From: a virus | Taxonomy: Duplodnaviria; Caudoviricetes | Reading direction: 5' to 3' (one strand) | IMG/VR virus record: IMGVR_UViG_3300048839_000441 | Coordinates: 1 to 50,759 of that record | Length of the DNA stretch: 50,759 nucleotides | Shown: positions 5,357-37,750 of the stretch, one piece after another | Numbering within the stretch: position 1 is the first letter of the stretch | How the letters are laid out: each line of letters begins with the position of its first letter | The notes under the pieces: model-generated | What the model was told of the DNA's origin: nothing | The model's database searches: none | What the model saw: only the letters and a program-made list of their open reading frames with translations | Made by a program: the position numbers and the translations under genes

Positions 5357-7390
5357 TTACCATTCTTCCTCAGATAAAATCACATTATAAACATCTCCGG
5401 CAACGGCAGCGGTCACGGTCACGGTTTTATTGCACTGATAGTTCTCTTTGCAATAAACCTCATCCCAGACATCATCCGCAAGATTCCTCTGGACTTTGAT
5501 ATAAACCGGATGCGAACTGGGAGTCGAACAATCATGCGGCTTAAATGTGAATGACAGTGAAGTAGAGCCGATTGATATCGTTCCGCTATGATTGTCAATA
5601 TACCAGGTTTCTCCGGCTTTAACTGAAACGACAACGGTAGGCAGTGCCGGAGGAGGAGGTTCACTACCGGCATCACCGCACTCTGCATCGGTAATCTGAA
5701 TGATCGGGAACAGTGGATCGTTAGGATAAGCACAACCCTCGCCGGAGTATTTGATTGCAACACCGTCAAGTGATGCAGATAGAAGATTGTATTTTAAATC
5801 ACCATATTCTATCGGGTCCATTCCGACAGTTGCATTGATGAGTTCTGAATGAGATAACTCACCTTCGAGAATAACATACTCCTGGCAGTTAGTTTCTTCA
5901 ATCCAAATCCAGAATGTCATATCAAACGGTGCAGGCTGATTCAGATAACAATGAACATAACTGTTATTATGAAGTGCCAAATCTTCGACAATCCACAGCG
6001 TAAAGTCCGGAGGTGTAGTTTCACCGCTGGCATTGGTTTCACCATACAGGAGGGTGAATCGCACCCCGCCATCAGGCTTTATTGTAGCTGATTTGACAAC
6101 TCCCTTTTCACCGTCGAAATAAGTCTCACCAAGTTCGGTTGTGATCAGATCATTCGGATCATAGTTATCTTCATAGCATACAATGGCATTTATTTCCTGT
6201 TGTTTGGTTGGTATGATTGATGCAAATTTAGTTAATCTGCCGTTCATGTAACCTTCTTCCAGTACCCGTCCGTGCCGGTGAAAGGCATCCTGAAGATTCG
6301 CCCATGACAGGTCCATATTGTATTTAAAATAAGTCCCGTATTTTGAATCAGCAAACCAGACATGAAGATCCGTACCGTCATAATAATTGGCTAAGAATAC
6401 AAATCCCTCGTCGGCTATTGTGAACGTATTAGCCTGGATCATCTCGATATCTGTAGTGACCGGCACCGTGTATTCACGGGTTTCACTCGATACACATGGC
6501 GAATCATACCAGATCGGCACCCCGACGAAAGCAATATTTGAAGCCTCTGCCCATAGGAATTTTTCATATTTTGGCATTTCCGGCTTATCATAGGAATACT
6601 TATTGCTCTTTACCGCTATCGCTTGTGTCTGTAAATCCAGTCCGGCAGTCTTCGAGAAATAACTATAATGCTCGACAATTATATTCACCCCATCGTAAAT
6701 CCAGTAAACATTGAACATCGTTTTCAGGATGTTCATAAAGTCATTCCAGGTTGTATTAGCTGCTGTTGCCGGATTTGAAGAAGTAGGCCGTTTAATATCT
6801 GATTTCTGTGCGACAGTGATAAGATTAACCCTGCTTGCAATGCCTGTCACATAGTTAGTCGCATCATTGAAGAAGCTTGAAACAACCGCAACACCGGGAA
6901 TGATATTATCTGCCAGGAACTCTATTACATCAATCAGCCAGCGGTTACGGGTATAGATTTCAGCTCCGCAGCTTGTAGTGACAACGGTAGGAACATCCAG
7001 GATATTGACCTCTTCTGCGCCCTTATTGTCAAATTCCATGTAATCATCATAAACCTTCGGAGTAATTGTAAACGTGCAGCGGTCTAGGTCAAACTCCCCA
7101 TCGGTTGTCGAGAACCAACCTGTCCAGTATTCATGATAAGTATCTGCTCCGCTATCCTTTTGTTCTATCTCCAATATCAGTCTTTCGCATGGAGAAGTGG
7201 CCTCAATGAGATAAAATAAAGAAAAGTCGTCACCCCCGTTATTGTCTGTAAAAATTAATGAGCCACTGAATGAGCGACGATAATAAATCTTGTCCTTTTC
7301 ACGGGCGTCAACAAGCGAGGTAGAACGGAAATTCAAAGGAAAAACCTCAACTCTCGACGACAACGCGGTTATGTAAAATCGATAATTCAT
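5357..7390 (-). CDS. Tail hub/tip protein
   Basis: 677 aa immediately downstream of the tape measure; ATGA-coupled. Confidence 0.6.
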   Translation of the reverse strand: MNYRFYITALSSRVEVFPLNFRSTSLVDAREKDKIYYRRSFSGSLIFTDNNGGDDFSLFYLIEATSPCERLILEIEQKDSGADTYHEYWTGWFSTTDGEFDLDRCTFTITPKVYDDYMEFDNKGAEEVNILDVPTVVTTSCGAEIYTRNRWLIDVIEFLADNIIPGVAVVSSFFNDATNYVTGIASRVNLITVAQKSDIKRPTSSNPATAANTTWNDFMNILKTMFNVYWIYDGVNIIVEHYSYFSKTAGLDLQTQAIAVKSNKYSYDKPEMPKYEKFLWAEASNIAFVGVPIWYDSPCVSSETREYTVPVTTDIEMIQANTFTIADEGFVFLANYYDGTDLHVWFADSKYGTYFKYNMDLSWANLQDAFHRHGRVLEEGYMNGRLTKFASIIPTKQQEINAIVCYEDNYDPNDLITTELGETYFDGEKGVVKSATIKPDGGVRFTLLYGETNASGETTPPDFTLWIVEDLALHNNSYVHCYLNQPAPFDMTFWIWIEETNCQEYVILEGELSHSELINATVGMDPIEYGDLKYNLLSASLDGVAIKYSGEGCAYPNDPLFPIIQITDAECGDAGSEPPPPALPTVVVSVKAGETWYIDNHSGTISIGSTSLSFTFKPHDCSTPSSHPVYIKVQRNLADDVWDEVYCKENYQCNKTVTVTAAVAGDVYNVILSEEEW

Positions 7391-9861
7391 TTTCTTATTA
7401 TCCTCGTTTTATTGCCTCGCTTTTCTATTCTCATATTTGGATAGTCCTGAACATTTGGACGTGACATGATAAATTCATTCTGCCGGATAAGCTGATACTC
7501 GACTTTATCCAGTCGTTCGCTTAGTCCGTTTACATCAATATTGATATTATTGACCGCATCACTCCGGTCAACAACCAGGTTATCACGATTGAAGTTATTC
7601 ACTATCTCGGTGAATGCTTTACCATACTTAGCAGAAGCACGGCGGTTCAGCACTCCGAACATCTCGCCCCTCTCGACCTCAACATGATCCAGTAATCTCT
7701 CGCCGCCCTGTTTATGAGTCCTGCCTGTTATTACTCCGGTATCGTCACCAACACCACCCTCGGCAAGTTTGGTTACTTGTGCGGACTTAATCTTAGCAGC
7801 GGCAAAGGCAGTGAACATTGTGGCAATTGTGGCAATGGCAGCGACAATTCCAATCGGCCCCAGAGGACTGAGTGACTTGAATATGTCTGCTGATGCTGTT
7901 ATGAGTGATGATACTTGGCTCACCGTATCCAATGCCCTTTGAGCTTTCAGGGCCTTTTCTTCTTCTTTTAGTGCTGTTGCGCGGGCGACTTTTAATTGTT
8001 CGAGTTCTTTTCTCTTGGCATCGACATTATTAGCAAATCCCTCCTCCATTAACCGTGTTTCGGTATCCAATGCCCTCTGAGTTTCAGCTATCTGAGTATC
8101 ATAAAGCTCGCGTGTACGCTGTGCATCTTCGAGTCGTGCGGCAAAAATATCATCCAGCACGCCTTTCATTGTTTCAACACTATTCTGAATAGCCTCCTGC
8201 GCTTCAGGCGAATCCCCTAATCCTATGTAATCCCAGATGGTTTTTTCTGCCTGTTTGCCTGCTAATTCTTTATCAATTAATCCTAATTGAAGTTCAAGCA
8301 GTTCGGCCTGTTGCTGAAGTATTGGGTCCTGAGATGATTTTAAAAGGTCAATCCGTGCCTGTATCCATTTTTTCTGAATCTCAAGTTCTTTCTCCCCGGT
8401 AAGTTCTCCGGCAAGTTCAGCAGTTTTAAGATCGAGATTCTCCCTGAAGTCAAGAAAATCCATTCTTTGCTTAATGGCCTTATCGTAGGTCTCAGTCCAG
8501 AAATCAGTCGTCGCTTGTTGCTCCTGCCGCGTTGCTATTTCTGCATCCCTGATAGCCTTTGCCCGTAACCCTTCAATCCATTTATAATGATCTTCGGTAA
8601 GTGTGCCAAGTGATTCAAGGTGTGCCTGAAGCATATCATATTGCCGGAGTTGATAGTCGCGTTCGGCAATGATTTTATCCTCACCCGTCAACCCTTGTAT
8701 GACTATCTGTTCATATTCCTGTTGAAGTTTCAGCGAAGCGTCGGTAAATTCTTTGAGGTTTTTAAGTCTTTCTTCTTCTGCCTTTTTGCGATTCTCATTT
8801 GCTTCTCTGTTTATTTCCTCCTCAAATCCGGTCATGCGTGACAGGTTTCGCTTATTCTCTTCATAATAACGGGTATCGAGATCAATCCAAGTAGCATAAA
8901 GTTGGTCAATGTTATTTACTTTATCTTCATTACGGTTGAATAAGTCTTTTACTGCCTGATCTGCAAGTTCTCGCTCTTTGTCGTCCATTTTAACGAAGTT
9001 AAGAAGCTCTAACTCTGTGACCTTATTTTTAGCAGCAAGAACCTTAATCTCTTCATCAATTTTTCTGCGGACAAACTCCCTTTGTGCATTAACCTCTTGA
9101 AGTCCTAAATCCAACGCTTCCTGAAGTGCTTTTTTTCTTTCGGCAGAACTTTTCGCTCTGTCCTGTGCCGTAAATTCTAACCGGGCTATCTTATTTCTGT
9201 TTTCAGCAGCAGTAGATACATAGTTTTTTTCAGCATCTTCAATAGCATCAATAGCATATACATAATCATAGGCAGCCTTTGTCGCATCTCTCATTTGATC
9301 ACCTATTCCGGTAAATGATGCTTTCATATCTTCACCGGCCTGCTTCCAATTGCCTTTGAATAAATTGCCAATAGCAGACGTAAAGTTTAATACCCTTTGC
9401 CGGAGAACATCCATTATAGCCCTTAACTGCTCGAATCGTGCCTGTATCGCATTGGCTCCACTGTCTGTTGATTTAAATATCTTAATCAATCCGGCCAACG
9501 CTCCGACAATAGCAGTTATAACCAATACAATAGGATTAGCCAATAACGCCTTAAAAGCGGCACTCAATGATCTCACCCCTCCGACGGCACGACCAGCAGC
9601 CCCGCCCATACCCTGAACGGCATCAGCGGCCTGCTTGGTTTTGGCAGTGTGAGCCTCCATGTCTTTCGTATCAAAGGCTTTCTTTCGCTCTGTTGCCGCT
9701 TTCTCGTATGCTTTTGAGGTTTGATTAATGACGTTTTGCTGATTTTTACCAAGCTCCTTGCCTTTATCATCTAATTGCTGAGTCGCTTGCGTAGCATCCT
9801 TCAGTCCTTTAACATATTGCGAGTTATCTGCTACTATTTCAAATTCTATCCGTTTCGCCAT
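7387..9861 (-). CDS. Tail tape measure protein
   Basis: 824 aa helical, A/E/K-rich; hydrophobic segments (ALLANPIVLVITAIVGAL, GPIGIVAAIATIATMF); C-terminal LAEGG...GRTHKQGGE; follows the chaperone pair. Confidence 0.9.
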   Translation of the reverse strand: MAKRIEFEIVADNSQYVKGLKDATQATQQLDDKGKELGKNQQNVINQTSKAYEKAATERKKAFDTKDMEAHTAKTKQAADAVQGMGGAAGRAVGGVRSLSAAFKALLANPIVLVITAIVGALAGLIKIFKSTDSGANAIQARFEQLRAIMDVLRQRVLNFTSAIGNLFKGNWKQAGEDMKASFTGIGDQMRDATKAAYDYVYAIDAIEDAEKNYVSTAAENRNKIARLEFTAQDRAKSSAERKKALQEALDLGLQEVNAQREFVRRKIDEEIKVLAAKNKVTELELLNFVKMDDKERELADQAVKDLFNRNEDKVNNIDQLYATWIDLDTRYYEENKRNLSRMTGFEEEINREANENRKKAEEERLKNLKEFTDASLKLQQEYEQIVIQGLTGEDKIIAERDYQLRQYDMLQAHLESLGTLTEDHYKWIEGLRAKAIRDAEIATRQEQQATTDFWTETYDKAIKQRMDFLDFRENLDLKTAELAGELTGEKELEIQKKWIQARIDLLKSSQDPILQQQAELLELQLGLIDKELAGKQAEKTIWDYIGLGDSPEAQEAIQNSVETMKGVLDDIFAARLEDAQRTRELYDTQIAETQRALDTETRLMEEGFANNVDAKRKELEQLKVARATALKEEEKALKAQRALDTVSQVSSLITASADIFKSLSPLGPIGIVAAIATIATMFTAFAAAKIKSAQVTKLAEGGVGDDTGVITGRTHKQGGERLLDHVEVERGEMFGVLNRRASAKYGKAFTEIVNNFNRDNLVVDRSDAVNNINIDVNGLSERLDKVEYQLIRQNEFIMSRPNVQDYPNMRIEKRGNKTRIIRK

Positions 9862-15236: not shown

Positions 15237-15586
15237 TTCTTGGCTTTTTTGGCCGGAGTCCGCTTTGATTTCGAAGGTCCAGGAACTACAGCGGCAGGAT
15301 CACCACCGGATTCAACAGTCTCTTCAACTTTCTCTGTCATCGGATCACCCTGCAATTCTGCGGGCATCTCAGGAGCCTTGACTTCAGGCTCTCTGATCGC
15401 CGGTTTAATCATCACTGGTTTGATTGTCGGCCTCAGTAGCGGCTTTTCAAGTTCAGCCGGGCGGGCTTTTCTCAGGTCTTCTTCACTGATTGCCCCGTAA
15501 AAACGTGATGCAATTTTATAAGCGGCTTTGCTTAACTTCTTAGTCTTGCCGTTTATAATTGCTTTTACAAGTTCTTCTCTTGCCAT
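15233..15586 (-). CDS. Basic/Pro-rich hypothetical protein, first gene of the capsid operon
   Basis: 117 aa; TACCTTTA promoter-like box at about 15608-15615. Confidence 0.6.
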   Translation of the reverse strand: MAREELVKAIINGKTKKLSKAAYKIASRFYGAISEEDLRKARPAELEKPLLRPTIKPVMIKPAIREPEVKAPEMPAELQGDPMTEKVEETVESGGDPAAVVPGPSKSKRTPAKKAKK

Positions 15587-15667
15587 GATAATTATGTTAT
15601 TCGGACGTAAAGGTATAAATATCTTTTAATATCATTATCATTTTATCTGTTATTTTTTAAACACAAT

Positions 15668-15693
15668 AAAAAAGCCCGGATTTCTCCGAGCTT
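15668..15693 (-). terminator. Terminator closing the pentamer array
   Basis: AAGCTCGGA-GAAA-TCCGGGCTT-TTTT. Confidence 0.85.
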
Positions 15694-15696
15694 AAT

Positions 15697-15928
15697 TTAA
15701 CTCACCCAACCGGACCTCACCCAGCCTCGCCTCACCTCACCGTACCAGTCCGGACCATTCCCCACCGCTACTGCCTCAACATACCAGGGCCTACCTTGCC
15801 GCACCGCACCTCACCGCACCGTACCGCACCGTACCACACCGAACCTTTGCTTACCAAGCCTCAACTGCCAAACCAGACGTAACCTTACCACAACTCTTCA
15901 TTCCCGTCCAAAACATACCTTATCTGCC
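15697..15928 (-). ncRNA. GGY-NN pentamer array, three GGCAG-N4-headed units (candidate guide RNA array)
   Basis: 41 pentamers in 5-nt register (10+17+14); 40 start with G and 29 are GGY; lies between a stop codon and a terminator. Confidence 0.8.
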
Positions 15929-16384
15929 TCAGTCAATCGCTTCAATAGCTTGATTGACGTATTCGAGAACCTTGTCGAATTGCTTGTAAAGTTTCAGTTT
16001 ATTCTTCAGTGTATTCAACTGCTGAATAATCCCGGCTTTAACATATTCGATGTTATCCGAAGTGAAAGTATCAATACTTTGATACCCTTCTTTTTTACTC
16101 GTAACTTCATAAACATCAATCTCACGGGCTTCACCGTCAGAGATAACTGACACCTGGATATTGTTCAATAGTATCCGGGCCTGTTGTACCCTCCATAACC
16201 TACCGGCTTTCGTGTCGTCCCATTCAAAGAATTTATGAAGAACAGAACCCTCGTCCTCTGCCGCCTGAACAATAAGTTCGGGAGTTATAGACCCGTAAAG
16301 AGATTGGATGCGATTCAGTTCGTTTACGGCATCTTCAGGATTGATCCCTTTTGCCAGTCCTTTTAATTTCCAGTTGTAGTTCAT
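15929..16384 (-). CDS. Partner protein of the Cas7-like gene (151 aa)
   Basis: LHKFFEWDD..A...WRVQQAR motif; start at 16384 gives a TAATG overlap with the upstream stop. Confidence 0.8.
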   Translation of the reverse strand: MNYNWKLKGLAKGINPEDAVNELNRIQSLYGSITPELIVQAAEDEGSVLHKFFEWDDTKAGRLWRVQQARILLNNIQVSVISDGEAREIDVYEVTSKKEGYQSIDTFTSDNIEYVKAGIIQQLNTLKNKLKLYKQFDKVLEYVNQAIEAID

Positions 16385-16980
16385 TACTTTTCCTCCGCTA
16401 ATTTGAAACGACCATAATTGAACTTTGTTTTTTCGGGCCGCATCTCGCCAATACCGCACCCATAACCAGCAGCCTTGACAAGTTGGTAAATCTGATCCAA
16501 ACTAACAACCCCGGAGTTAAACTCCACAGTGAGAATAGCAGACCATTCAGGATATTCCGGCCTGTAACGTATGTCAGCAGAACCCATGCCAACCCGTACC
16601 ATGTCGGTACGCATACGGCAGTCACCATAAATTCTGACAAGTTGTGTTTCTTCGCAGTCAGCCTTAATAAAGAATGACGTTTGCGTGTCCTTCATAACCA
16701 TGCCGATCATCTTCGCACCCCGGATCATTGCGGCCTTGAAGCCTGCGGCGGGGAAACCATCCCATCCTTCGGGCGATTTGTGCTTTGCCTGTTCAAAGTC
16801 ATCTTCAGGCACACGAATATCGTGTTTCTTGTTCTTAGCCTTACCTGCCTGCTTGTCGGAGATTTCACGCATTGCTTTCACGCTCCACGCATGAATAATA
16901 AGCGGAGAAATACCGACGATAGGAATTTTTACCTCCCGAATGTTAAATTCGAGAACTTCAACAGATTTTGAATTTTTCAT
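16384..16980 (-). CDS. Stand-alone Cas7/RAMP-like RNA-binding protein
   Basis: RAMP-like motifs: IVGISPLIIH, FPAAGFKAAM, thumb-like DMVRVGMGSADIRYRPEY, and C-terminal Gly loop GYGCGIGEMR...YGRF. Confidence 0.75.
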   Translation of the reverse strand: MKNSKSVEVLEFNIREVKIPIVGISPLIIHAWSVKAMREISDKQAGKAKNKKHDIRVPEDDFEQAKHKSPEGWDGFPAAGFKAAMIRGAKMIGMVMKDTQTSFFIKADCEETQLVRIYGDCRMRTDMVRVGMGSADIRYRPEYPEWSAILTVEFNSGVVSLDQIYQLVKAAGYGCGIGEMRPEKTKFNYGRFKLAEEK

Positions 16981-16995
16981 AATGATTTGTTTTGC

Positions 16996-17098
16996 AAAAG
17001 AGCCTTTTCAGCACAAAGGCAAGTCCGCGACGCAGCGGCTTCGTGCTTACTCAGGCTCAATGTCTTTGATTTTTGCGTCATCTTAGAGTCACTTGCTG
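16996..17098 (-). ncRNA. C4/CI-like structured leader RNA, copy 1
   Basis: Nested stems GAGCCU/AGGCUC, AGCACGAAG/CUUUGUGCU and CCGC/GCGG; loop-E-like AGUA/GAA; loop and bulge complementary to upstream sites. Confidence 0.7.
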
Positions 17099-17102
17099 AC
17101 CT

Positions 17103-17110
17103 CAAAGATA
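17103..17110 (-). promoter_or_regulatory. Bacteroidota -7 promoter box TATCTTTG
   Basis: Matches TAnnTTTG directly upstream of the leader. Confidence 0.7.
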
Positions 17111-17136
17111 AACTATTTTTTTAATATGCAATACCT

Positions 17137-18093
17137 TTACTGATTATTTTGTGCCTTTAACATTCTTTCAGCAATAGAATCTACTAACCATGAAATCCAA
17201 TGACGGCAGCGATAACCGCCCCGGTCAGTCAAAGGATCATAACCCGGATAGCTCAGGTAACTCGGTACTTCATCCTGATTTTTCTGTTTGACCTTGTAGC
17301 CTTCAGGATAAACTCCCTGCGACGGAGTCCATGTTCTCCACTTTTCGGCATCCTCACGCTTGAATACTTTATTATTGTGAGCAACGCAAAAATCACGGCT
17401 GTCTTTAACTAACCCGCCCTGATAGATAAAATACTTCATCCCCGTTTCGTCGGCCATTGCAGTTGAATAAGCACTGGCATACTGATGATAAACGTCGTGA
17501 GCATAACGGTTAAACTGCCGTTCAATCCCTCCTAATTTGCCTTCGTCGCCGTTAATCAAAGTGTTCAGCCCTTTGATATAGTCCTTCATTGGTATCTGAG
17601 CCGTCACCGCCTGGGCTGTCATCTGCTTGACCTCTAATAGCAGAGATTCATTCTTTATCAGAGTATCAAAGAAACCACCTGAGACAATTGATCCGCCGTC
17701 TAAGCCTAACCTCAGTCCCATCTTTTTAGAGACACTTGCCGCAACGGCCTTAAATGTATTAGGCGTTTCAAATCCCATCATCACCTGAAAATAGTTAATC
17801 GTCCGGGAGTTTATTCCTGACAATGTATCGCCAACTTCTTCAACAAATGCCACACGTTGCCCATTCTGAAAGTCGTTATAGACCTTATCCAATGATGAAA
17901 GTATTCGGAAGTTTTTAACTGTACTCCTAATTTTCCCATTGCTCACATCTAACTGAGGGATGATTTCGGCGGTGATCTTTGACAATAACATTCCCTGCAT
18001 CTTCCGCAGCCGAACATTAAGTGCCGTTTCACTTGCGGTCAGAAATTCATCTTTACGACGGACCAACTCTTCAATTCTCTTTGGCAGACGCAT
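17137..18093 (-). CDS. Minor head protein (SPP1 gp7/Mu F-like)
   Basis: C-terminal SRDFC...GGYRCRH motif; between portal and scaffold. Confidence 0.75.
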   Translation of the reverse strand: MRLPKRIEELVRRKDEFLTASETALNVRLRKMQGMLLSKITAEIIPQLDVSNGKIRSTVKNFRILSSLDKVYNDFQNGQRVAFVEEVGDTLSGINSRTINYFQVMMGFETPNTFKAVAASVSKKMGLRLGLDGGSIVSGGFFDTLIKNESLLLEVKQMTAQAVTAQIPMKDYIKGLNTLINGDEGKLGGIERQFNRYAHDVYHQYASAYSTAMADETGMKYFIYQGGLVKDSRDFCVAHNNKVFKREDAEKWRTWTPSQGVYPEGYKVKQKNQDEVPSYLSYPGYDPLTDRGGYRCRHWISWLVDSIAERMLKAQNNQ

Positions 18094-18310
18094 ATAGTTC
18101 TTTTTTCATCCTTGAATACGTCGAGATAGCACTTTCAATATTAAAGTCCTCTATACAAAGATACTTAAAATATAGGAAAATGCTCTCTTCAATCGTCACC
18201 GCAGGAACTAATCGCCGCTGGCCCTCGACCCAAAAGAACATACCGGTATCCTCAAATGAGTTGCGGTAGAACTTCTCAATTACGCTTATGTATTCTTTTT
18301 TGCGGGGCAC
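18071..18310 (-). CDS. Hypothetical protein
   Basis: 79 aa, fills the gap in the co-oriented operon. Confidence 0.55.
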   Translation of the reverse strand: MPRKKEYISVIEKFYRNSFEDTGMFFWVEGQRRLVPAVTIEESIFLYFKYLCIEDFNIESAISTYSRMKKELYASAKEN

Positions 18311-18923
18311 GGGTATATTGCATTCGTGTTTTACGGTCTGTTTTATTCAAGGTCTGAGATGTGATGTGATTCACTTGTACGGCACAGATTAAATAGTGAT
18401 CTATCCCGGCGCGTTTCAACTGTTCTGCATGAACGTTATCAGAGTACCAAAACTCATACGATGTATCTAAAGGATAGATTTTATCCCATACTGATTTATG
18501 CTGAAAGATACACCAACCACAAAAAAACGTGCCTATTGTGTAGCCTTTATAAGCCTTGTAATCATTTGGCATACCATAATGCGACCGGCTCTCGCTCCGG
18601 GCGCAGGCTGAAAGTATCCCGTTTGCCTCCATAATACCGCCAATCTCTGACCAGCCTTTCATGAAAATCACGTCATTGTTGGATAAGATTTGAACGTCGC
18701 CGGTACGATATTTTAATCCTTCATTTAAACAGGCGTTGTAATTAAATGGTTTGTTCCAGAATATTGTCTGATTTACTCCCCGGTATCGCGCACGGGTAGC
18801 GGTTTCAATTAAGATCACATTCACATCAGCCCCGTCAGCTAAACAGGAATCAATAGCCCGTTGTGTCATCTCAACTAAGCTGTGATCTTTTGAGGCTGCT
18901 ACTATGATGAGGTCGTACTTCAT
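18276..18923 (-). CDS. GT2-like glycosyltransferase
   Basis: YDLIIV, FNYNACLNEG, ILSNNDV and FWYSDN motifs. Confidence 0.8.
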   Translation of the reverse strand: MKYDLIIVAASKDHSLVEMTQRAIDSCLADGADVNVILIETATRARYRGVNQTIFWNKPFNYNACLNEGLKYRTGDVQILSNNDVIFMKGWSEIGGIMEANGILSACARSESRSHYGMPNDYKAYKGYTIGTFFCGWCIFQHKSVWDKIYPLDTSYEFWYSDNVHAEQLKRAGIDHYLICAVQVNHITSQTLNKTDRKTRMQYTRAPQKRIHKRN

Positions 18924-19318: not shown

Positions 19319-19935
19319 CAGAATACATAAACATCACCAGGTGTTGACTGATTCAATCCGATATGCCTCATTGCATAATCTTTCAGATAACAAGGAGGGC
19401 AGCCATTAAGACGGTAAAAGCCACCGATTGAATAATCGCCTTGTTTCAGGTGAACAAAGTCCTCACACAGCATTGTAACATACTTCGTCGGAGCCAACTG
19501 AAAAGCTCCGCCGGTGTGGGATACATATTCAACATTCAATCCTCCTATCTTTCGCCGTGAAAGAATCCGGGGATAGAAGTTAGGATCAATCAGCAGGTCA
19601 GGTGGTGAGACAGCATGAGGACCGTTCTTTTCAATGAACTCGACGATCTTCGCAATGATATCCTCTGTGACGGTTTCAACGTCGTTGTCAAGTTTGAGAA
19701 TATAATCATAGTCCTGCAACTGCTGAACGCCGTAATAAAAGGCTGCTGCTATGCCTTCATTCTTACCTAACTCAATCCGGTTCCTGTCTTTCAGCCACTC
19801 CAATGTTCCGTCCGTAGAACCATTGTCAATGAACAAATGAAAGTCAACTCCGGTCTTACTCTCAAAACTCTCTATTGTCCGCTTCGTAAGTTCGAGTCGG
19901 TTGTAGGTGATTGTTACTGCTGCTACTGTTGGCAT
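19318..19935 (-). CDS. GT2 glycosyltransferase
   Basis: TITYNR, IDNGSTDGT, KLDND. Confidence 0.85.
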   Translation of the reverse strand: MPTVAAVTITYNRLELTKRTIESFESKTGVDFHLFIDNGSTDGTLEWLKDRNRIELGKNEGIAAAFYYGVQQLQDYDYILKLDNDVETVTEDIIAKIVEFIEKNGPHAVSPPDLLIDPNFYPRILSRRKIGGLNVEYVSHTGGAFQLAPTKYVTMLCEDFVHLKQGDYSIGGFYRLNGCPPCYLKDYAMRHIGLNQSTPGDVYVF

Positions 19936-20393
19936 TTGCTTAATATTAATTTTTTTATTGATTCAAATGTATCAGGATATTCTCTTTGCAACAAAATATC
20001 TCGATCTTCTTGTGTTAATGAAGATAGATATGTAATTTCAGAGGGACGTAATTTTATCTTTTTTGCTCTACTTTTATATTTGTAAGAACCAAAATACTCA
20101 GCCAATACGTCGTTCATCTGTATAACTTCAATAACAGAAAAACACCTATTTGCATTTAATAGGTAATTATAAATATCTCTTTCCTTAGCAATACTTAATC
20201 TTTTAGTGCCCTTCCGTGCATTACATCGCCAACACAAGGTTAAAAGATTATCCACAATATGTAATTGATATTTAGGTTTAGGTAGAACATGATCTAAGTT
20301 TAGATTATCGGAAGACCCACATTCATAACATTTATTATTATCGCGGGCAAAGATCATATTTCTAACATCCTGTATTGTCATTTTATTACTCAT
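19923..20393 (-). CDS. HNH endonuclease
   Basis: RDNNKCYECG...LDHVLPK...NLLTLCWRCNARKG; AT-rich insert. Confidence 0.85.
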   Translation of the reverse strand: MSNKMTIQDVRNMIFARDNNKCYECGSSDNLNLDHVLPKPKYQLHIVDNLLTLCWRCNARKGTKRLSIAKERDIYNYLLNANRCFSVIEVIQMNDVLAEYFGSYKYKSRAKKIKLRPSEITYLSSLTQEDRDILLQREYPDTFESIKKLILSKCQQ

Positions 20394-20992
20394 AAATCAT
20401 AATTCCCCGGTATGTGCATCACGAAATACTCCGGCGTTGCAATCTTACCATACTTCCGTGACTTCATCATCAGTGATTGATTGAAGTGATGATCATGAGC
20501 ATACCCCCGGTGTGCCCATCTTGCGCCCAGTTCTCTTTTATGACAGATGTTTGATGTCCCGTTCATCCCTAACTTCCGTATATCACAAGTGCGCTCAACC
20601 CATTCACCGCCGGAGAAGATCAAATCATTAAAGAACACCCAGTCATACTCACCCAATCCTTCAGCTATTTTCCTTAAATGACCGTCGCCCCAGTAATCGT
20701 CAATGTCAAGGTAAGCAATAAACTCGCCTTTTGCAAGTTCAATCCCTTTGTTTCGTGGCGCGCCGTCCCACAATGGAGCCTTCTGAATCTTCACGGCCTC
20801 AACTCTCTGATCAGTGAATTGCTTCATTATCTCCATTGTCAGATCGCACCCATCAGCAATGACCTTCAGTTCAAAGTCAGTGTAAGTCTGATCCAATACA
20901 GACCGAACAGCACGGACAAGTTTTTCATCACGGCGGGAGGCCGCACCCGGATATTGGCCTAAGAACGAGGGAATAACACAGGTAAATTTCAT
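20390..20992 (-). CDS. GT2 glycosyltransferase
   Basis: SVLDQTYTDFEL..IADG, RNKGIELAKGEFIAYLDIDD. Confidence 0.9.
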   Translation of the reverse strand: MKFTCVIPSFLGQYPGAASRRDEKLVRAVRSVLDQTYTDFELKVIADGCDLTMEIMKQFTDQRVEAVKIQKAPLWDGAPRNKGIELAKGEFIAYLDIDDYWGDGHLRKIAEGLGEYDWVFFNDLIFSGGEWVERTCDIRKLGMNGTSNICHKRELGARWAHRGYAHDHHFNQSLMMKSRKYGKIATPEYFVMHIPGNYDL

Positions 20993-22770
20993 TCTTCAGG
21001 CTCATTAAATTGAACAACCGGCTCTTTTGGTTTGGCTCCATCCATCTTTGCAATGTACTCTTCTGTCTTGGCTTTTACCCTTTCTGAGATGTATTCTTTT
21101 GCCATGTCATAAATCCATTGCTTTTCTTCGATCTCCAGTTCATTGAAGATCGATTCAAGATTTGCCCACAGGACAGCGTTATACTTAGTCGTCAGGTTCT
21201 GAGCAATCGCAAGCCTAACGTTTTCTTCTGAATAGCCCCGGAACGGATTGTAATCATTTTTTATCCTTATGACCTTCAGCTCTTCGGGCCGGTCAGCGTA
21301 CAGGAGTTCGTTAATATCATCCTCTATTTTCGCAATGGTCGATGTTGAGGCTCCGGCATCTTTTGCCTGTTTCAATTCAAGCATCAACTCGGTCTGTGAT
21401 TTAAATTTAAAATCCTCCGGATACTGGTGTTGAAGAATTATCCCGTCCCCCATGTCAACAAACGTTGCGATATCTTCAACCACAAACTCCCATGTAGTCG
21501 AAAGCGACTGAGCAAACGGTCGCAGGGTGTCGTTAATATTGTCCTCTGTTATCCGCACTTCTGTTGCTGTCGAACTCAGTTCGTTCCGGGTCATCAGCTC
21601 TTTGTTGAACATCATCAGGAACACCGAAGCCCGGAGATTCTGAACATACTGCTCCTGGAACTCAAGTAACTCAATCGGAGGTGATTTATAAACAAGCAGC
21701 TTTTCGAGGTCAATCATCTCAACAGGATCGCGCGGCAAGTCCAAAGTGACAACGTCCATTGTCGATGAATGAATCGGTTCTTTACCCGTTCCGCCGCAGG
21801 TTCCGCAAGCCTTTCCGTCTAACAACGTTCTTGCCCCGTGACACTCAGGACAGGGATTGACATAGCGAAACCTCTGAGGAAAAGCCGTCATAGCCGTCGA
21901 AAGATCAAGTTCGCTGTCTATCTTCAGTGTCTTACTCAGGTAAGGAATCACATCATGAAAAGCGGATATAAACGTCCGACCCTGAGTCTCGCCGTCAGGC
22001 TTATAGCCAAATCGCCGTGCCGGGATCTTCTTTCCTTTCGGTTTAAAAAATTCGACAAGATAGTATTTACCTGCTATCTCAACCCCACCCGGAAGGTCTG
22101 AGGTAATATCTATAGTTGGTTTATCTTCGACCTCAGTAAACTGGATTGTATCCTCACCCAGATAAATAGTGTACTTAAACCCTTCTTTCGGTTTGCCCTC
22201 TTTGTCAATCCATGAGATCGGAAGCCGCACAACCAGGTATTGAAGAATGTTATTCTTAAACTCGAACATTATCGCTTGCTCCGATGTAGCGATAAACGGA
22301 TAAGGTTTTGCTTTCTCGACTTTCGGATCAAATGTGTCAAACTCGGTAATCAAAAAAGCGTTCGGGTCGATATAATTGTAATCCACATAAGCATATTCCA
22401 GGAACTTTTCAAGCGATCCGTCACCCCAGTAAGTGCTTATGCGATCTTCGACTAACTTCAGATTCTCTTCAGGCTTTTCAGCGTCCCAGTCAATCACTCT
22501 GACCTTCGGCTTCTTTCTTACCGCCTTCTGAAACGGCAGTTTTGTTGAGGCGAGCGTCGGGGGGATAATTGAGTTTGTCAGTCGTTTCCGCTGTTCAAAC
22601 TCTTCTTCTGATTCGCGGGTAACAATTCTTTCCAATAGGTCGCTTATGCCGTCACCTGTGACCATTTTATAATACATATCCGCTAACTCACAGACACGCT
22701 TGTAATCTTTGTGTCTGACACCCCCGGCAATAATTCGCCGCAGTTCCTGAAATCCTTCGAGTTTATTCAT
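20989..22770 (-). CDS. Portal protein with a CxxCxG zinc-finger insertion
   Basis: 593 aa immediately after TerL; CPECHG...CGTCGGTG. Confidence 0.8.
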   Translation of the reverse strand: MNKLEGFQELRRIIAGGVRHKDYKRVCELADMYYKMVTGDGISDLLERIVTRESEEEFEQRKRLTNSIIPPTLASTKLPFQKAVRKKPKVRVIDWDAEKPEENLKLVEDRISTYWGDGSLEKFLEYAYVDYNYIDPNAFLITEFDTFDPKVEKAKPYPFIATSEQAIMFEFKNNILQYLVVRLPISWIDKEGKPKEGFKYTIYLGEDTIQFTEVEDKPTIDITSDLPGGVEIAGKYYLVEFFKPKGKKIPARRFGYKPDGETQGRTFISAFHDVIPYLSKTLKIDSELDLSTAMTAFPQRFRYVNPCPECHGARTLLDGKACGTCGGTGKEPIHSSTMDVVTLDLPRDPVEMIDLEKLLVYKSPPIELLEFQEQYVQNLRASVFLMMFNKELMTRNELSSTATEVRITEDNINDTLRPFAQSLSTTWEFVVEDIATFVDMGDGIILQHQYPEDFKFKSQTELMLELKQAKDAGASTSTIAKIEDDINELLYADRPEELKVIRIKNDYNPFRGYSEENVRLAIAQNLTTKYNAVLWANLESIFNELEIEEKQWIYDMAKEYISERVKAKTEEYIAKMDGAKPKEPVVQFNEPEE

Positions 22771-24230
22771 TTGTAATAATTATTATATACCTCAACTATC
22801 AGATAATCTAGTGTATCGGAGCAATGCCCGTATTTCTGATATTTATCACCCGTTTCTTTATCAGTTACAATGTGTTTGTCTTTCGCCCCGTTAATGTCCT
22901 GTTTGACATACATCATATCCGCAATCATCAATTTACAACTCTCATCAATGACTATCTTTATCGGTAACTTCTCTTCAAAGATACGATTTATAAAGTCACG
23001 ACGTTTTGTTACTGACGGATTTTGCCGGGCCATCCGTGCCGAAGTCTTATTTAAAAATCTCCTTAGTTTAAACTCAATGATCTCATAGTGATGTTTAAAC
23101 TCTTTATTCATCGTTGAACGTGCCTTGCCCGAAGCATCGCCATAATAGTAAATTGTTGACTGATGATGCGCATATCGCATTAAAATCTCATCACAAACCT
23201 CTTCTGTTGAGTTCCTGGGGTTCTGAAGGGCGATCTCATCGATGCAATACGAATACCAAATCTCCCCTTTTCGTTCAAACTGCCAAATAGAACACGAGTT
23301 ATAAGGTACTGAGTTCTGATCAAAAGAAATATGCAAAGGTTTTGTTTTGTCGTATTCACATTTTGAGACGTGTTTCAGACGGTCAAAGGATGAATAGAAC
23401 TCGCCCCCGACAAGCGTAAAAGGATTTGCATATATCAATGCCCGGCCCCGTTCCTCGGTATTGTTTGCAAGTATGTTATTGATATAATTCTCCCCGACGT
23501 TATGAACATTATGCCAAGTCGAAGATATGCAAACAAACTTATCATCTATCCGCTTAAAAAAGAACTTATCCTTACTGTAAATTGTGCTGGTAATTTCGTC
23601 AATATGATCTTCAAGTTTGAACCAAGTATTAATCCAGTCCACTTTAGCCGGTGAGGTTGCAATGAATAAAGGATTGTATTGTTGCTCCGGCGTTCCTTTG
23701 TCTGACAACTCCCCATCAATAAGAAACATCCCCTTTTGCCTGATACGTGCAATAACTATCTCCTTAACATCTGATTCATCCGTATCCTTTGTTTCATCCA
23801 ATACAGCCCAACCAAATTCTTTTCCTTCGTGTGATGCTGCCCGTTCAAGTGAACCGATAAAAATAACACATCCATTGATAAAAGAGATGATCCCATAATA
23901 GTCATCAAAGTTATGACCTTCGACATTAAAGTGTGACGGCGGTTTCTTCCCTACAACATAGTGACCTTCAGGATGCGATTCTTTATCATATTCGACGATT
24001 CCGATTGACTTCCAGTATTCACGAATGCAAAATAAAGTTGACTGAACGAGCTGTAAATATGTGTTCGCCCCCACAAAGCCCCTGACCTTTGGAAACTTTC
24101 TGATAAGCTGATAGGTCTTTATTCCAAGTAAATGAGTTTTTCCCGATCCAACGCCTGAGAGAAATAAATTAATCGGAGCCGTTGACTGCAATATGCTTTT
24201 TTGTGGGGCTGATACAACTTGCTCTATCAT
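22767..24230 (-). CDS. terL: Terminase large subunit
   Basis: Walker A GVGSGKT, Walker B AVLDE, nuclease acidic motifs (ISFDQN, GDASG, HCSDTLDY). Confidence 0.93.
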   Translation of the reverse strand: MIEQVVSAPQKSILQSTAPINLFLSGVGSGKTHLLGIKTYQLIRKFPKVRGFVGANTYLQLVQSTLFCIREYWKSIGIVEYDKESHPEGHYVVGKKPPSHFNVEGHNFDDYYGIISFINGCVIFIGSLERAASHEGKEFGWAVLDETKDTDESDVKEIVIARIRQKGMFLIDGELSDKGTPEQQYNPLFIATSPAKVDWINTWFKLEDHIDEITSTIYSKDKFFFKRIDDKFVCISSTWHNVHNVGENYINNILANNTEERGRALIYANPFTLVGGEFYSSFDRLKHVSKCEYDKTKPLHISFDQNSVPYNSCSIWQFERKGEIWYSYCIDEIALQNPRNSTEEVCDEILMRYAHHQSTIYYYGDASGKARSTMNKEFKHHYEIIEFKLRRFLNKTSARMARQNPSVTKRRDFINRIFEEKLPIKIVIDESCKLMIADMMYVKQDINGAKDKHIVTDKETGDKYQKYGHCSDTLDYLIVEVYNNYYK

Positions 24231-24775
24231 TTGATGATTATATCAGGCAATTGAGCAACATTGACCTTTAATTCTGTTTTGACCGGAGCATCAAAACCCA
24301 GCATCTTTGAAATGCTGTCGAGAGCTTTCTGTTTGTCGAACAGTTTTATCCTGATGTATTCAACCTGAATCGGTTCTTTCTCTTTTGAATCAGGATTATA
24401 TTGATATTCGTACCTGATCTTTGTATCAATTTCAGCAATGGATGACTTTTGGTCGTCAGTAAGTTCGTCAAACTCTTTTCTTTGAATCCATGTATTATGA
24501 AGATCACTTATAGAAGAAAAGGCGAGTTTCTTGTGTTCATTCAAAACCCTCAATCTGCTAACACCCGCTGTTTCAGCAAGATTGTCCTGCAATTCCTTAA
24601 TTCGAGCCTGAATGTTCACTTTTGTTAACAGAGTTGAAGCAATAGAACGGGCTGTATTTTCTGAATATCCTGATCTTATCGCGGCCTGAGTTCCATTAAA
24701 GTCAATGCAATATTCATAACAGAATCTTTCCTGTTTATCGTTTAATTGCAGTATATCTTCTGTTTCTTCGCTCAT
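24227..24775 (-). CDS. terS: Terminase small subunit
   Basis: LNDKQERFCYEY..DFNGTQAAIRSGYS; KLFDKQKALD. Confidence 0.93.
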   Translation of the reverse strand: MSEETEDILQLNDKQERFCYEYCIDFNGTQAAIRSGYSENTARSIASTLLTKVNIQARIKELQDNLAETAGVSRLRVLNEHKKLAFSSISDLHNTWIQRKEFDELTDDQKSSIAEIDTKIRYEYQYNPDSKEKEPIQVEYIRIKLFDKQKALDSISKMLGFDAPVKTELKVNVAQLPDIIIK

Positions 24776-36548: not shown

Positions 36549-37026
36549 TTGCTATAACGTACTTCTGAAGATTGTATTTCTGAACGTCGTTTGCATGTAC
36601 CCACACTGTTTTAGGCATGTCAGGATATTTAACCGCTAACCACTCCCGCCAAATACTATCACTGGTCAATGCTTCTTTACACATCTCGTCATAGGTTTTA
36701 AATTTAACAGTTCGATCATAACTGATAAAATTTGCTATTGTTGGAGTAGGGTATGGGCAGTTGTCAATAACATACGAAACGGCATCTTTCAATCTTTCAT
36801 CACAAAACCCCTTATCTTTTATTCTCTCTGACAACATATCATAAAATCCTGGAGTAAGCAATGGGAATGCCTTTGCTATTTTGGCCGTCTGATCAACCAC
36901 ACATTTAGCAGTCAACTCTCCATGATATAGGCTAATAGTTTCCTTCTCTATCTGAGGCAAAATGTTTTCCGACTGCTCCTGCAATTTCGGCAGGTGTTGC
37001 TCCAGTATTTTTTTTATTGACTCCAT
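36541..37026 (-). CDS. Possible helicase loader/inhibitor
   Basis: Immediately after the initiator; C-terminal YPTPTIANFI. Confidence 0.45.
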   Translation of the reverse strand: MESIKKILEQHLPKLQEQSENILPQIEKETISLYHGELTAKCVVDQTAKIAKAFPLLTPGFYDMLSERIKDKGFCDERLKDAVSYVIDNCPYPTPTIANFISYDRTVKFKTYDEMCKEALTSDSIWREWLAVKYPDMPKTVWVHANDVQKYNLQKYVIANG

Positions 37027-37750
37027 TATCTTTTTCCTTGAATAGTCCGTCGTAATTTTTCGATGTTGAATATAAAATCATTTTTCGCAATTCTTCTGCA
37101 TTGCCTCCGGTATCCTGCATCACTTTAATCAATAAACTTTTTAACCCGGTTTCTTTATAAGTCTGTCGTTTTTCACTTTTGTATTTCAGCCACTCTAATA
37201 TTAAACTTTTAAATTCATCACTTAAAATTAAATTATTATCACTAATAACTTTATTAAACAATAAAACATAATCAGCATCTTTATTTACATCTCCAATGCT
37301 TTTTAAACGATCTGATATCCATTCGGTCAACCGTTCGGTCAACCGTTCGGTTTCGATCTCGTTAAATTCTGATACTTTAAAGCACTTTTTCAGAAATGCA
37401 AACTCTGTTTTGTTGTATCCTCCAAGTCGTAAAAGTGCTGCAAATGTGCCTGTTATTGTATTTATTCTTCCCCGTTCTAACCGTTCGGTCATTAGGTCGC
37501 TTAGCTTTCGGTTAACCAATCGGTTATCCGTTCGCTCAAAATGGACTGAAATAACCGACCATATTTTCAAAAAATATTCATCAGATAGGCCGACCATTTT
37601 TGCTAACCGATTTATATCAGTGGGCAAACTACCCCTTTGGTGTTGGTAGCAGAGCAAGTCAATATATACACCTTTTTCATCAGGCATATACTCCGCTGTA
37701 CCCTCTAACCAATCTTTAGAGTAAAATAAAAATGCCGGGTCTTTGCTCAT
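36932..37750 (-). CDS. Replication initiator (YdaU/DUF1376-type N-terminus)
   Basis: KDPAFLFYSKDWL...EKGVYIDLLCYQ; C-terminal EWLKYKSEK...NYDGLF; internal iterons. Confidence 0.8.
   Translation of the reverse strand: MSKDPAFLFYSKDWLEGTAEYMPDEKGVYIDLLCYQHQRGSLPTDINRLAKMVGLSDEYFLKIWSVISVHFERTDNRLVNRKLSDLMTERLERGRINTITGTFAALLRLGGYNKTEFAFLKKCFKVSEFNEIETERLTERLTEWISDRLKSIGDVNKDADYVLLFNKVISDNNLILSDEFKSLILEWLKYKSEKRQTYKETGLKSLLIKVMQDTGGNAEELRKMILYSTSKNYDGLFKEKDNGVNKKNTGATPAEIAGAVGKHFASDREGNY
37317..37560. repeat. Iteron-like repeats (AACCGTTCGGTY), putative replication origin
   Basis: Tandem copies at 37329 and 37341, a variant at 37317, another copy at 37479, degenerate copies to about 37560; AT-rich flank at 37200-37270. 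Confidence 0.65.

Follow-up and report, generated by a model that had tools for sequence, protein, structure and literature searches.

The transcription unit at positions 17110..15668 on the minus strand of IMG/VR record IMGVR_UViG_3300048839_000441 (50,759 nucleotides, the whole of which was analyzed and is called the window here) is very probably a Viral Interference Programmable Repeat (VIPR) system. Its carrier is an uncultivated tailed phage that lives in wastewater and activated sludge and whose host is probably a member of the Bacteroidota. The locus consists of a vipr gene, a conserved accessory gene and a GGYNN array on the same strand that ends at a terminator. The assignment of the unit to the VIPR kind is made with high confidence, while by analogy with characterized systems we lean towards the view that its output is to silence a rival element, be it a phage, a satellite or a prophage. 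VIPR systems have been described in four 2026 preprints, including 10.64898/2026.04.26.720920, in which a Vipr RAMP and a vap gene accompany GGY/NN vrRNAs, each repeat binds a single protomer and the target is gapped. The original prediction, a reading of the raw sequence alone, had recovered a genuine RNA-guided system first described only in 2026. Its own doubt about novelty was justified, since the VIPR kind is already in print and the locus opens no new category. What the window adds is a well-delimited natural example, located within the structural module of a wastewater phage with a Bacteroidota-like host, and a clean view of the staggered array form.

Analysis of the locus architecture recovered each element of the predicted transcription unit (promoter, leader, 198-aa gene, TAATG coupling, 151-aa gene, array and terminator) on the minus strand. 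The promoter-like box TATCTTTG (17103..17110), located by motif search and putative in function, fits TAnnTTTG, which we take to be the Bacteroidota -7 consensus. This box aligned in five of the eleven upstream regions compared (the window and related loci L001, L006, L012 and L017), and TANNTTTG occurs across the whole window without enrichment (43 found vs 46 expected). The leader or 5' UTR (16981..17102) includes a terminator-like hairpin at 17020..17002, displays marginal folding (MFE -34.5 kcal/mol, z -1.98) and retains 97-100% identity across L001-L005; a scan of both strands detected no GGY array within it. The vipr gene (16384..16980), identified through profile, structure and PHROG matches, encodes a 198-aa Cas7/Csm3-like RAMP and is followed by the 151-aa vap-like accessory gene (15929..16384), the ATG of which shares one A with the vipr stop codon TAA in a TAATG overlap. 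Downstream of these genes lies the array (15702..15928), and the unit closes with a short tail and an intrinsic terminator (15668..15701) whose hairpin (15693..15672) has nine pairs, a GAAA loop and a T run after it. The terminator hairpin is also found 3' of the arrays in L001, L003, L005 and L006. The array had been described as non-coding, and no open reading frame of at least 40 aa overlaps 15587..15928 in any frame. Searches detected no tRNA genes in the window and no Rfam family at E <= 1 in 15400..17300.

The unit had been placed between a minor head gene and a capsid operon, a detail that found only partial support. Its location inside the morphogenesis module stands, because terminase and portal genes (20989..24775) and a tape measure gene (7387..9861) flank it. 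As for the head and capsid identities, the upstream 318-aa gene matched Phage_Mu_F at E 0.089, which is weaker than the Pfam cut-off, and the genes downstream of the unit had no family match in Pfam or PHROGs.

Sequence comparison assigned the 198-aa protein to the Vipr family of minimal RAMPs. It matched PHROG 4652 (E 2.4e-27) and, as a single sequence, the PDB chain 36pp_D, titled SUSP1 Vipr protein (E 4.7e-4). The profile of its 63-sequence family matched the same chain at E 7.9e-14, and this match together with the preprint 10.64898/2026.04.26.720920 bears out the original suggestion that viral GGY/NN systems named VIPR exist. An hhalign comparison to SUSP1 agp039 returned a probability of 98.3% and an E of 2.4e-14 for a region that takes in the thumb strand, helix 2 and the G-loop; the alignment to the SUSP1 Vipr sequence covers only residues ~127-196, about the C-terminal third. 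At E <= 0.001 the family comprises 874 homolog clusters in a 90%-identity collection. Neither operon protein had a match in Pfam, NCBIfam or PADLOC.

Structural analysis of the protein agreed with the RAMP/Cas7 fold that had been claimed for it. The AF2 model (pLDDT 93.8, pTM 0.88) displays the features of a minimal RAMP, namely a single RRM core, a thumb and a glycine-rich loop, and a Foldseek search of the PDB returned 51 matches at E <= 0.001. Among the best 30 of these 51 matches, nearly all were Csm, Cmr, type VII or type III-D effector complexes, in addition to one Cas6. VIA-align superposed the model on chains of Cas10-Csm effector complexes with a Z of 11.5 (rmsd 3.4-3.6 A, 153-154 residues aligned) and on 5yjd_B, a chain titled Csm3, with a Z of 11.1. 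Like the Csm3/Cas7 chains 8do6_E, 9g9f_E and 5yjd_B, the protein has an RRM core, a thumb hairpin and a glycine-rich loop, with Z values of 11.1-11.5, rmsd of 2.7-3.6 A and 133-154 residues aligned, but the sequence identity is only 10-12%.

Despite this structural likeness, neither the repeat-spacer array nor the cas gene set of a class 1, type III-like CRISPR-Cas system was found. The window contains no repeat-spacer or CRISPR-like repeats, no cas family was detected in PHROGs (74 ORFs) or Pfam (6 ORFs), and the Cas models of NCBIfam and PADLOC did not match the operon proteins, in line with the absence of cas genes and CRISPR noted at the outset. The array period of 5 nt also differs from the 6-nt crRNA step (10.64898/2026.04.26.720920).

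To compare the Vipr protein with its characterized relative at the residue level, the contacts reported for Escherichia phage SUSP1 were transferred through the alignment. The cryo-EM preprint on SUSP1, a system treated in 10.64898/2026.04.26.720920 and 10.64898/2026.04.26.720927, describes each subunit as gripping GGY and displaying NN, as had been guessed from the sequence, with GGY contacts that include R138, D177, W178, R179 and C173; W178 stacks on G2. In the window protein R138 corresponds to R140, D177 to E179, R179 to R181 and C173 to C175, so that four of the five aligned contact residues are kept or conservatively replaced, while W178 corresponds to M180. The SUSP1 contacts H17, K33, E71 and M72 fall outside the aligned part. 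R140 is kept in 62 of the 63 family sequences and R181 in all 63; G172, G176, R181 and G190 are invariant in the family and G178 is nearly so. Methionine occupies the W178 position in the window protein and in 119 of 120 close homologs, and tryptophan occupies it in 40 of the 63 family representatives.

The accessory gene product matched PHROG 15946 (E 1.1e-14; 57 homologs). It is homologous to the vipr neighbors in Mycobacterium phage Quico (E 2e-15), Gordonia phage ODay (E 1.9e-12) and cyanophage Cy-LDV1 (E 9.5e-18), and a homolog lies beside vipr in three of the four cultured phages tested. Among the related loci, a vap homolog is found 3' of vipr in L001, L003-L010, L029 and L030. Comparison with SUSP1 vap1 showed no similarity (E 0.19, probability 0.3%), and an accessory family distinct from vap1 accompanies vipr across three bacterial phyla. 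The vap model (pLDDT 75) returned nothing from the PDB at E <= 0.001 with Foldseek, a wide VIA search gave at best a Z of 5.6 that was confined to a C-terminal helical hairpin, and the ESM Atlas contained matches to unnamed viral clusters only.

Downstream of vap, the array was characterized by a scan for chains of at least four GGY triplets at 5-nt spacing, with one consecutive non-GGY unit allowed; the array search of the preprint likewise used at least four units (10.64898/2026.04.26.720920). A scan of both strands of the whole window detected three chains only, all of them on the minus strand within 15702..15889, and Tandem Repeats Finder independently reported period 5 at 15714-15741 and 15799-15845; the pentamer periodicity is no product of chance. 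The first junction, GGCAG followed by ATAA (15920..15928), lies directly 3' of the vap stop codon. In-phase reading from this point gives block A (15865..15919), with 11 units that end in GGCAG; this block is degenerate, with GGY kept in 6 of its 11 units, and is identical in L005. A TTGA junction with a -1 phase shift (15861..15864) leads into block B (15771..15860), in which the scan and the in-phase reading together gave 18 units, 15 of them with GGY, again ending in GGCAG. The TAGC junction (15767..15770), read in phase and with the same -1 shift, precedes block C (15702..15766), which was delimited in the same two ways and keeps GGY in 11 of 13 units. No tail separates the three blocks, which meet directly at GGCAG junctions that shift the phase by -1. 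Apart from the terminal hairpin, the array RNA folds no better than shuffled sequences (z -0.35).

Pentamer arrays beside homologs had been proposed as a check, and this check came out in favor of the prediction. Arrays of at least six GGY units lie on the vipr strand in 28 of 34 related loci. Over the 152 kb of these loci 97 arrays were counted on the vipr strand and none on the opposite strand, and 20 mononucleotide shuffles of each of the 34 loci produced two arrays in all. Across the 97 arrays the unit composition is G in 98% at the first position, G in 91% at the second and C or T in 96% at the third, with positions 4 and 5 mixed, and 77 of the 97 blocks end in GGCAG. In L008, L009, L023, L025 and L043 the last G of GGCAG doubles as the opening G of the GGY unit that follows; the window junctions have the same -1 shift, but the first unit is degenerate. 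The strict strand bias, the placement of the tract within a transcription unit, with a stop codon on one side and a terminator on the other, and the family homology to SUSP1, for which transcription of the arrays and their co-purification with Vipr are reported (10.64898/2026.04.26.720920), make it scarcely credible that the tract acts as DNA (an iteron-like binding array or a recombination hotspot beside the gene of an unrelated RNA-binding protein), a reading with nothing specific in its favor.

The close relatives also display guide-like evolution, in that GGY is kept while NN varies. The Vipr proteins of L001-L005 are 99-100% identical at 97.2-97.7% DNA identity, and despite this near identity their arrays differ in block number and content. 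Comparison of the window with L001 by eye placed seven of seven substitutions in block B and five of six in block C at NN positions. The stretch, in whole or in part, is present in sequencing runs from 18 studies, and a genome-contig search with the single Vipr protein returned two loci. Contigs from four of four metatranscriptome runs (four studies) contain vipr, the leader, the array and the terminator, which provides weak support because DNA carry-over is possible; contigs, moreover, carry no information on strand or transcript ends. The contigs of all four runs also have a 35-nt (7-unit) skip in the array. RNA-library contigs at a likeness of at least 90% leave 15978..16193, in the middle of vap, uncovered; this gap is no surprise, given that strains share only about 90% identity in vap, and it has no bearing on expression.

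These observations place the locus close to VIPR type II of Escherichia phage SUSP1 (vipr agp039, vap1 agp038; PDB 36pp) without making it a member of that type. The window shares with SUSP1 a homologous Vipr, a phage-borne two-gene vipr-vap operon, same-strand GGYNN arrays, the conserved thumb arginine and the G-loop acid, arginine and cysteine, and the absence of cas genes and of a CRISPR array. Our array detector recovered the known SUSP1 layout, in which one array lies upstream and three lie downstream. The downstream SUSP1 arrays are separated by gaps of ~70-100 nt, and each runs into a conserved tail that opens with a GGGTAG-type sequence; the tail is described as a pseudoknot (10.64898/2026.04.26.720920). 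In the window, by contrast, the blocks abut at GGCAG plus 4 nt, a terminator hairpin follows the last block only, and there is no upstream array. Neither vap1 nor tail-capped vrRNAs, which define VIPR type II (the SUSP1 / P. fulva clade), were found. The locus thus differs from the characterized SUSP1 system in three ways: staggered tail-less blocks, an unrelated accessory gene and the replacement of tryptophan by methionine.

The junctions are best likened to the arrays called staggered in the legend of Fig. S18 of 10.64898/2026.04.26.720920, where vrRNAs derive from 1-nt overlapping positions and the end of one is the start of the next. The -1 phase junctions in the window and its relatives probably correspond to this form. 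The text of the preprint lists as confirmed by sRNA-seq ribozyme-interspersed arrays and single-vrRNA systems only, and not the staggered form.

By analogy with SUSP1, the operon transcript would give rise to three vrRNAs (A, B and C) whose boundaries fall at the GGCAG junctions, and Vipr protomers would polymerize at one per pentamer. Two adjacent protomers may clamp each GGY by means of the G-loop, the thumb arginine and helix 1 so as to leave NN exposed. The NN pairs would then read double-stranded DNA with one base skipped for every two read (xNN), and binding is predicted to silence transcription of a competing mobile element, a process in which the accessory protein may assist. A bolder proposal, which we regard as unlikely, is that the clade represents a VIPR type of its own, with an as yet undescribed way of making guides. 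Such a type would be defined by methionine in place of the G2-stacking tryptophan, by tail-less blocks and by an accessory protein with an 'FEWDD' motif that would be common to phages of Bacteroidota, Actinomycetota and cyanobacteria. The invariant GGCAG and its -1 shift would serve as an internal ruler or stop signal that breaks the register of the Vipr filament and delimits or triggers vrRNA cleavage with neither a pseudoknot tail nor a ribozyme. In that case the accessory protein might be a processing or loading factor, and the targets would reside in wastewater mobile elements beyond the collections searched.

Natural targets were sought under the xNN rule, with two bases read and one skipped, as exact sub-patterns or with at most three mismatches; no convincing match emerged from these scans. 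Nine exact-pattern scans were run, seven of them searching viral contigs for parts of guides A, B and C and two searching metagenome contigs, with a reversed control in addition. In viral contigs, units 4-14, 1-10 and 9-18 of guide B, units 4-13 of guide C and units 1-10 of guide A each returned 0 loci, as did the reversed control pattern, and units 4-14 of guide B also returned 0 loci in metagenome contigs. Units 1-10 of guide C matched 11 loci in viral contigs, with a near-identical target sequence in all 11, and 9 loci in metagenome contigs, where the translated peptides form three groups. In every one of these matches the remaining four units agreed at chance level (22-23 of 28). At L032, the sole locus examined, the site belongs to a 262-aa ORF in which an S-AdoMet-synthetase N-terminal domain was recognized; there NN coincides with codon positions 1-2. 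We rejected this S-AdoMet-synthetase-like gene as a target on the grounds that agreement beyond the ten units is no better than chance, that guide B shows no convergence on the records concerned and that more independent 10-unit matches appeared in the larger collection. Guide B had no site at up to three mismatches in five of the records matched by guide C, from which a Vipr homolog is likewise absent. At the same tolerance guide C was absent from both Bacteroidota MAGs that contain relatives and from each of the 301 genomes searched that belong to the same family as one of these MAGs.

Comparisons within the group of related loci gave a similar result. The guides of the window matched the window itself under skip 1 at best at 0.58-0.73, equal to shuffled guides, and no self-target was found; the preprint likewise reports no self-targeting for its VIPR systems (10.64898/2026.04.26.720920). 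Against the window, 58 guides of relatives gave two matches of at least 0.8 under skip 1 and three, one and four under skips 0, 2 and 3. Against 203 kb of related loci, 66 guides gave one match under skip 1 and ten and two under skips 0 and 2. For relatives' guides against the window or each other's loci, skip 1 does not rise above skips 0, 2 and 3. In the preprint, matches of at least 80% under a 1-nt skip were obtained for 44 of 63 guides of type III and 23 of 39 of type V (10.64898/2026.04.26.720920). The absence of targets is weak evidence, because exact-match scans are far less sensitive than the 80% nhmmer criterion of those authors.

The failure of the 1-nt skip rule to produce a target is one argument for a VIPR-family ribonucleoprotein whose role in this clade is something other than silencing of double-stranded DNA, such as RNA binding or sequestering, or silencing under another skip rule. 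The methionine at the W178 position, the accessory protein unrelated to vap1, the tail-less staggered array and the fact that the nearest solved folds besides Vipr are RNA-targeting type III backbones point in the same direction. We nevertheless judge this reading improbable, given the success of the same rule in types III and V, the failure of skips 0, 2 and 3 to do better here and the insensitivity of exact scans.

Still less probable is a decaying or orphaned VIPR locus, inherited and aimed at nothing, with an array that drifts by slippage and recombination. The low GGY content of block A, the missing targets and the gains and losses of whole units (the 35-nt skip and the varying block numbers of L001-L005) would suit such a history. 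However, the excess of protein over DNA identity among L001-L005 indicates strong purifying selection on Vipr, GGY is maintained while NN changes, and the promoter box, gene overlap and terminator are all retained. The number of homolog clusters and the occurrence in runs from 18 studies also argue against decay.

Loci like that of the window are present, without annotation, in cultured phages: Quico gp57/58, ODay gp19/20 and Cy-LDV1 g34/g33. Their Vipr proteins are 35-41% identical to that of the window, and the three loci share a vap homolog as neighbor and GGCAG-ended blocks on the same strand in annotated intergenic gaps. They differ from the window in their high-GC hosts and in GGC units that outnumber GGT. 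The loci of Quico and Cy-LDV1 stand beside immunity and excision genes, whereas that of the window stands among structural genes, and the Quico array is upstream of its vipr gene. Mycobacterium phage Quico and Gordonia phage ODay provide cultivable entry points for this array form.

VIPR systems were described in 2026 in four bioRxiv preprints (10.64898/2026.04.26.720920, 10.64898/2026.04.26.720927, 10.64898/2026.10.15.759431 and 10.64898/2026.10.21.760802), so the original prediction was correct in likening the locus to viral 'VIPR' systems with GGY/NN repeats. According to these preprints, a VIPR locus carries the gene for Vipr, a minimal RAMP, together with the accessory gene vap, and its guide RNA (vrRNA) is made of 9-16 GGY/NN pentamers, with one Vipr protomer per repeat. 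The NN positions pair with double-stranded DNA, each repeat passing over one target base, and the output is transcriptional silencing of competing satellites and prophages. Seven types are distinguished, among them "staggered arrays with overlapping vrRNAs". The mechanism proposed for the present locus from sequence, in which each subunit grips GGY and displays NN, is the published one. Our analysis confirmed the observation and supports its interpretation. The locus is very probably a bona fide VIPR system, of the staggered array form and with an accessory gene other than vap1, and it adds a further example to a kind already in print. Its mode of action would be that of Escherichia phage SUSP1, whose type II VIPR has been characterised and serves here as the analogue.

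All elements of the predicted transcription unit were located on the minus strand. A promoter-like box, TATCTTTG (17110..17103, by motif location), is followed by a leader of 122 nt, the 198-aa vipr ORF (16980..16384) and the 151-aa accessory gene (16384..15929), whose ATG has one A in common with the upstream TAA (TAATG). Next comes a non-coding tract (15928..15702), in which no overlapping ORF of at least 40 aa was found, and then a terminator hairpin of 9 pairs with a GAAA loop and a T run (15693..15672). The leader itself contains a terminator-like hairpin and T-rich run (17002-17020, minus) about 20 nt upstream of the vipr start. Possible roles for this hairpin are attenuation and stabilisation; the leader folds with a z-score of only -1.98, and in L006, L012 and L017, which are more distantly related, another hairpin occupies this position.

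Searches of Pfam, NCBIfam and PADLOC with the 198-aa protein gave no match, and PHROG 4652 (function unknown) matched at E 2.4e-27. At E <= 0.001 the family numbers 874 clusters in a 90 %-identity collection and 3,180 representatives in a 50 %-identity library. PDB entry 36pp_D ("SUSP1 Vipr protein") was matched by the single sequence at E 4.7e-4 and by a profile of 63 diverse family members at E 7.9e-14. A search of the SUSP1 genome with the same profile located SUSP1 vipr, and hhalign aligned the two with 98.3 % probability (E 2.4e-14) over a span comprising the thumb strand, helix 2 and the glycine loop. An AlphaFold2 model built from the alignment (pLDDT 93.8, pTM 0.88) gave 51 Foldseek matches in the PDB at E <= 0.001; among the 30 listed, nearly all were Csm, Cmr, type VII or type III-D effector complexes, and one was a Cas6. 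VIA-align placed the model on chains of Cas10-Csm effector complexes with Z 11.5 (rmsd 3.4-3.6 A, 153-154 residues aligned) and on a chain titled Csm3 with Z 11.1. These structural matches bear out the RAMP/Cas7 fold that had been proposed. The SUSP1 residues reported to contact GGY, R138, D177, W178, R179 and C173 (10.64898/2026.04.26.720927), are matched in the window protein by R140, E179, M180, R181 and C175 in both the PDB-profile and hhalign alignments. R140 is kept in 62 of 63 family sequences and R181 in all 63. In contrast to the SUSP1 tryptophan, methionine occupies the third position in the window protein and 119/120 close homologs, while 40 of the 63 family representatives retain Trp.

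To locate the array, chains of at least four GGY triplets at exact 5-nt spacing were sought, with one consecutive non-GGY unit allowed. A search of both strands of the whole 50,759-base window detected three chains, all of them at 15702..15889 on the minus strand, and Tandem Repeats Finder reported period 5 in the same tract. In phase, the tract reads GGCAG + ATAA, block A (11 units, GGY in 6), TTGA, block B (18 units, GGY in 15), TAGC, block C (13 units, GGY in 11), a short tail and the terminator; blocks A and B both terminate in GGCAG. The pentamer phase moves by -1 at every GGCAG + 4 nt junction. Folding of the array RNA (z -0.35) was no better than that of shuffles, the terminal hairpin excepted, which suits a protein-coated single strand. 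Whereas the SUSP1 arrays are set apart and each leads into a conserved tail, the blocks of the window abut. In relatives including L008, L009, L023, L025 and Mycobacterium phage Quico, the final G of GGCAG also opens the unit that follows, in agreement with the "1 nt overlapping positions" of the Fig. S18 legend in 10.64898/2026.04.26.720920. In the window each junction leads into a degenerate first unit, with an identical -1 shift. In that preprint, sRNA-seq confirmation is given for ribozyme arrays and single-vrRNA systems only.

Arrays were then compared across 34 related loci, comprising 28 IMG/VR loci, two MAG contigs and four cultured phages drawn from 37 matching phage records. Arrays of at least six GGY units numbered 97 on the vipr strand and 0 on the opposite strand, and mononucleotide shuffles (20 per locus) yielded 2 in all. 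The pentamer arrays expected beside homologs were present in 28 of the 34 loci. The other six are explained or weak: the sequence ends 408 and 265 nt past vipr in L002 and L019 and just past vap in L030, the match in L028 is a 33-residue fragment, and L018 and L027 hold chains of 4-5 units only. As a positive control, the detector recovered the one upstream and three downstream arrays of SUSP1, the layout given in 10.64898/2026.04.26.720920. Pooled over the 97 arrays, the units read G (98 %), G (91 %) and C or T (96 %), with positions 4-5 mixed, and GGCAG is the terminal unit in 77 blocks. Block number and content vary even among loci that share 99-100 % Vipr identity with the window (97.2-97.7 % DNA). 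Between the window and L001, one such relative, an eye count over equal-length blocks placed 7/7 differences of block B and 5/6 of block C at NN positions. A 35-nt deletion variant (exactly 7 pentamers; window 15802-15838) occurs in contigs from 4/4 RNA-library runs compared, and other contigs have blocks joined differently; the array is length-polymorphic by whole units in natural populations. In the four cultured phages (Quico, Gordonia phage ODay, cyanophage Cy-LDV1 and Pseudomonas phage LESphi2; L042-L045), unannotated intergenic GGYNN arrays adjoin a 'hypothetical protein' that is the Vipr homolog, at 2120-2360 in L043, 3129-3271 in L042, 3135-3316 and 3942-4074 in L044, and 2120-2424 in L045. 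The VIPR locus of Quico, Cy-LDV1 and LESphi2 lies next to repressor/Cro or excisionase genes.

The 151-aa accessory protein is homologous to the product of the gene adjoining vipr in Quico (E 2e-15), ODay (E 1.9e-12) and Cy-LDV1 (E 9.5e-18) and not to that of LESphi2 (E 0.73), and it has no similarity to vap1 of SUSP1 (E 0.19). Fold searches with its helical model (pLDDT 75) gave no informative match. The accessory gene evolves markedly faster than vipr, since DNA identity between the window and L001-L005 is about 90 % for the former and 97.2-97.7 % for the latter (leader, 97-100 %). In a more novel but less likely reading, the GGCAG junction together with this "FEWDD" accessory protein would mark a separate type that delimits its guides in a way of its own.

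Guides A, B and C, corresponding to the three blocks, were tested by the published xNN rule, in which NN pairs and one target base is skipped. No comparison made gave a convincing target under this rule, the scans of large collections having used exact patterns, which are much less sensitive than the 80 % criterion of the preprint authors. Self-targets of the three guides did not rise above shuffled-guide controls, and 10.64898/2026.04.26.720920 likewise reports no self-targeting for its systems. For the relatives' guides against the window phage and each other's loci, skip 1 performed no better than other skips. Of seven guide sub-patterns used in exact scans of viral contigs, one produced matches: units 1-10 of guide C matched 11 viral loci with near-identical target sequence. 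The reversed control pattern gave zero matches. At L032, the sole locus examined, the match falls within an ORF that carries an S-AdoMet-synthetase N-terminal domain, with NN on codon positions 1-2. We treated these matches as chance, given that the other four units of guide C match at chance level (22-23/28) and that five of the matched records contain no guide B site at up to 3 mismatches. In a larger metagenome collection the same units matched nine loci, with translated peptides in three groups and no extension; all remaining exact guide scans were empty. Within 3 mismatches, guide C was absent from both MAGs and from the 301 genomes screened in the family to which one of these MAGs belongs.

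The two cellular matches are contigs binned in Bacteroidota MAGs. The TATCTTTG box matches TAnnTTTG, the Bacteroidota -7 consensus, and when 11 upstream regions were compared it aligned in 5. Of 26 minus-strand matches to TANNTTTG, 10 (2806, 3961, 13148, 17103, 24905, 28359, 29039, 38429, 45650 and 49808) lie in inter-ORF gaps just upstream of a minus-strand gene; across the window the motif is not enriched (43 found vs 46 expected). This placement fits promoters of the Bacteroidota type and thereby a Bacteroidota host. The stretch or part of it occurs in runs from 18 studies of activated sludge, wastewater, anaerobic digesters and freshwater. Contigs from 4/4 metatranscriptome runs compared (four studies) cover vipr, leader, array and terminator, which is weak support for transcription because neither strand nor ends can be read from contigs and the libraries may include carried-over DNA.

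Elsewhere in the window, four ORFs match HNH-endonuclease PHROGs (19923-20393, 34034-34276, 34260-35009 and 44559-44936). The first of these and the glycosyltransferase-like genes around it (18276..18923, 20390..20992) occupy the interval from the portal gene to the VIPR unit. At 37317-37537, a 12-nt-based repeat (24-nt reference unit) is present in five copies that form two clusters 150 nt apart. The copies lie inside a 272-aa ORF (36932..37750) with a weak primosomal-protein PHROG match and look like replication-origin iterons embedded in an initiator gene.
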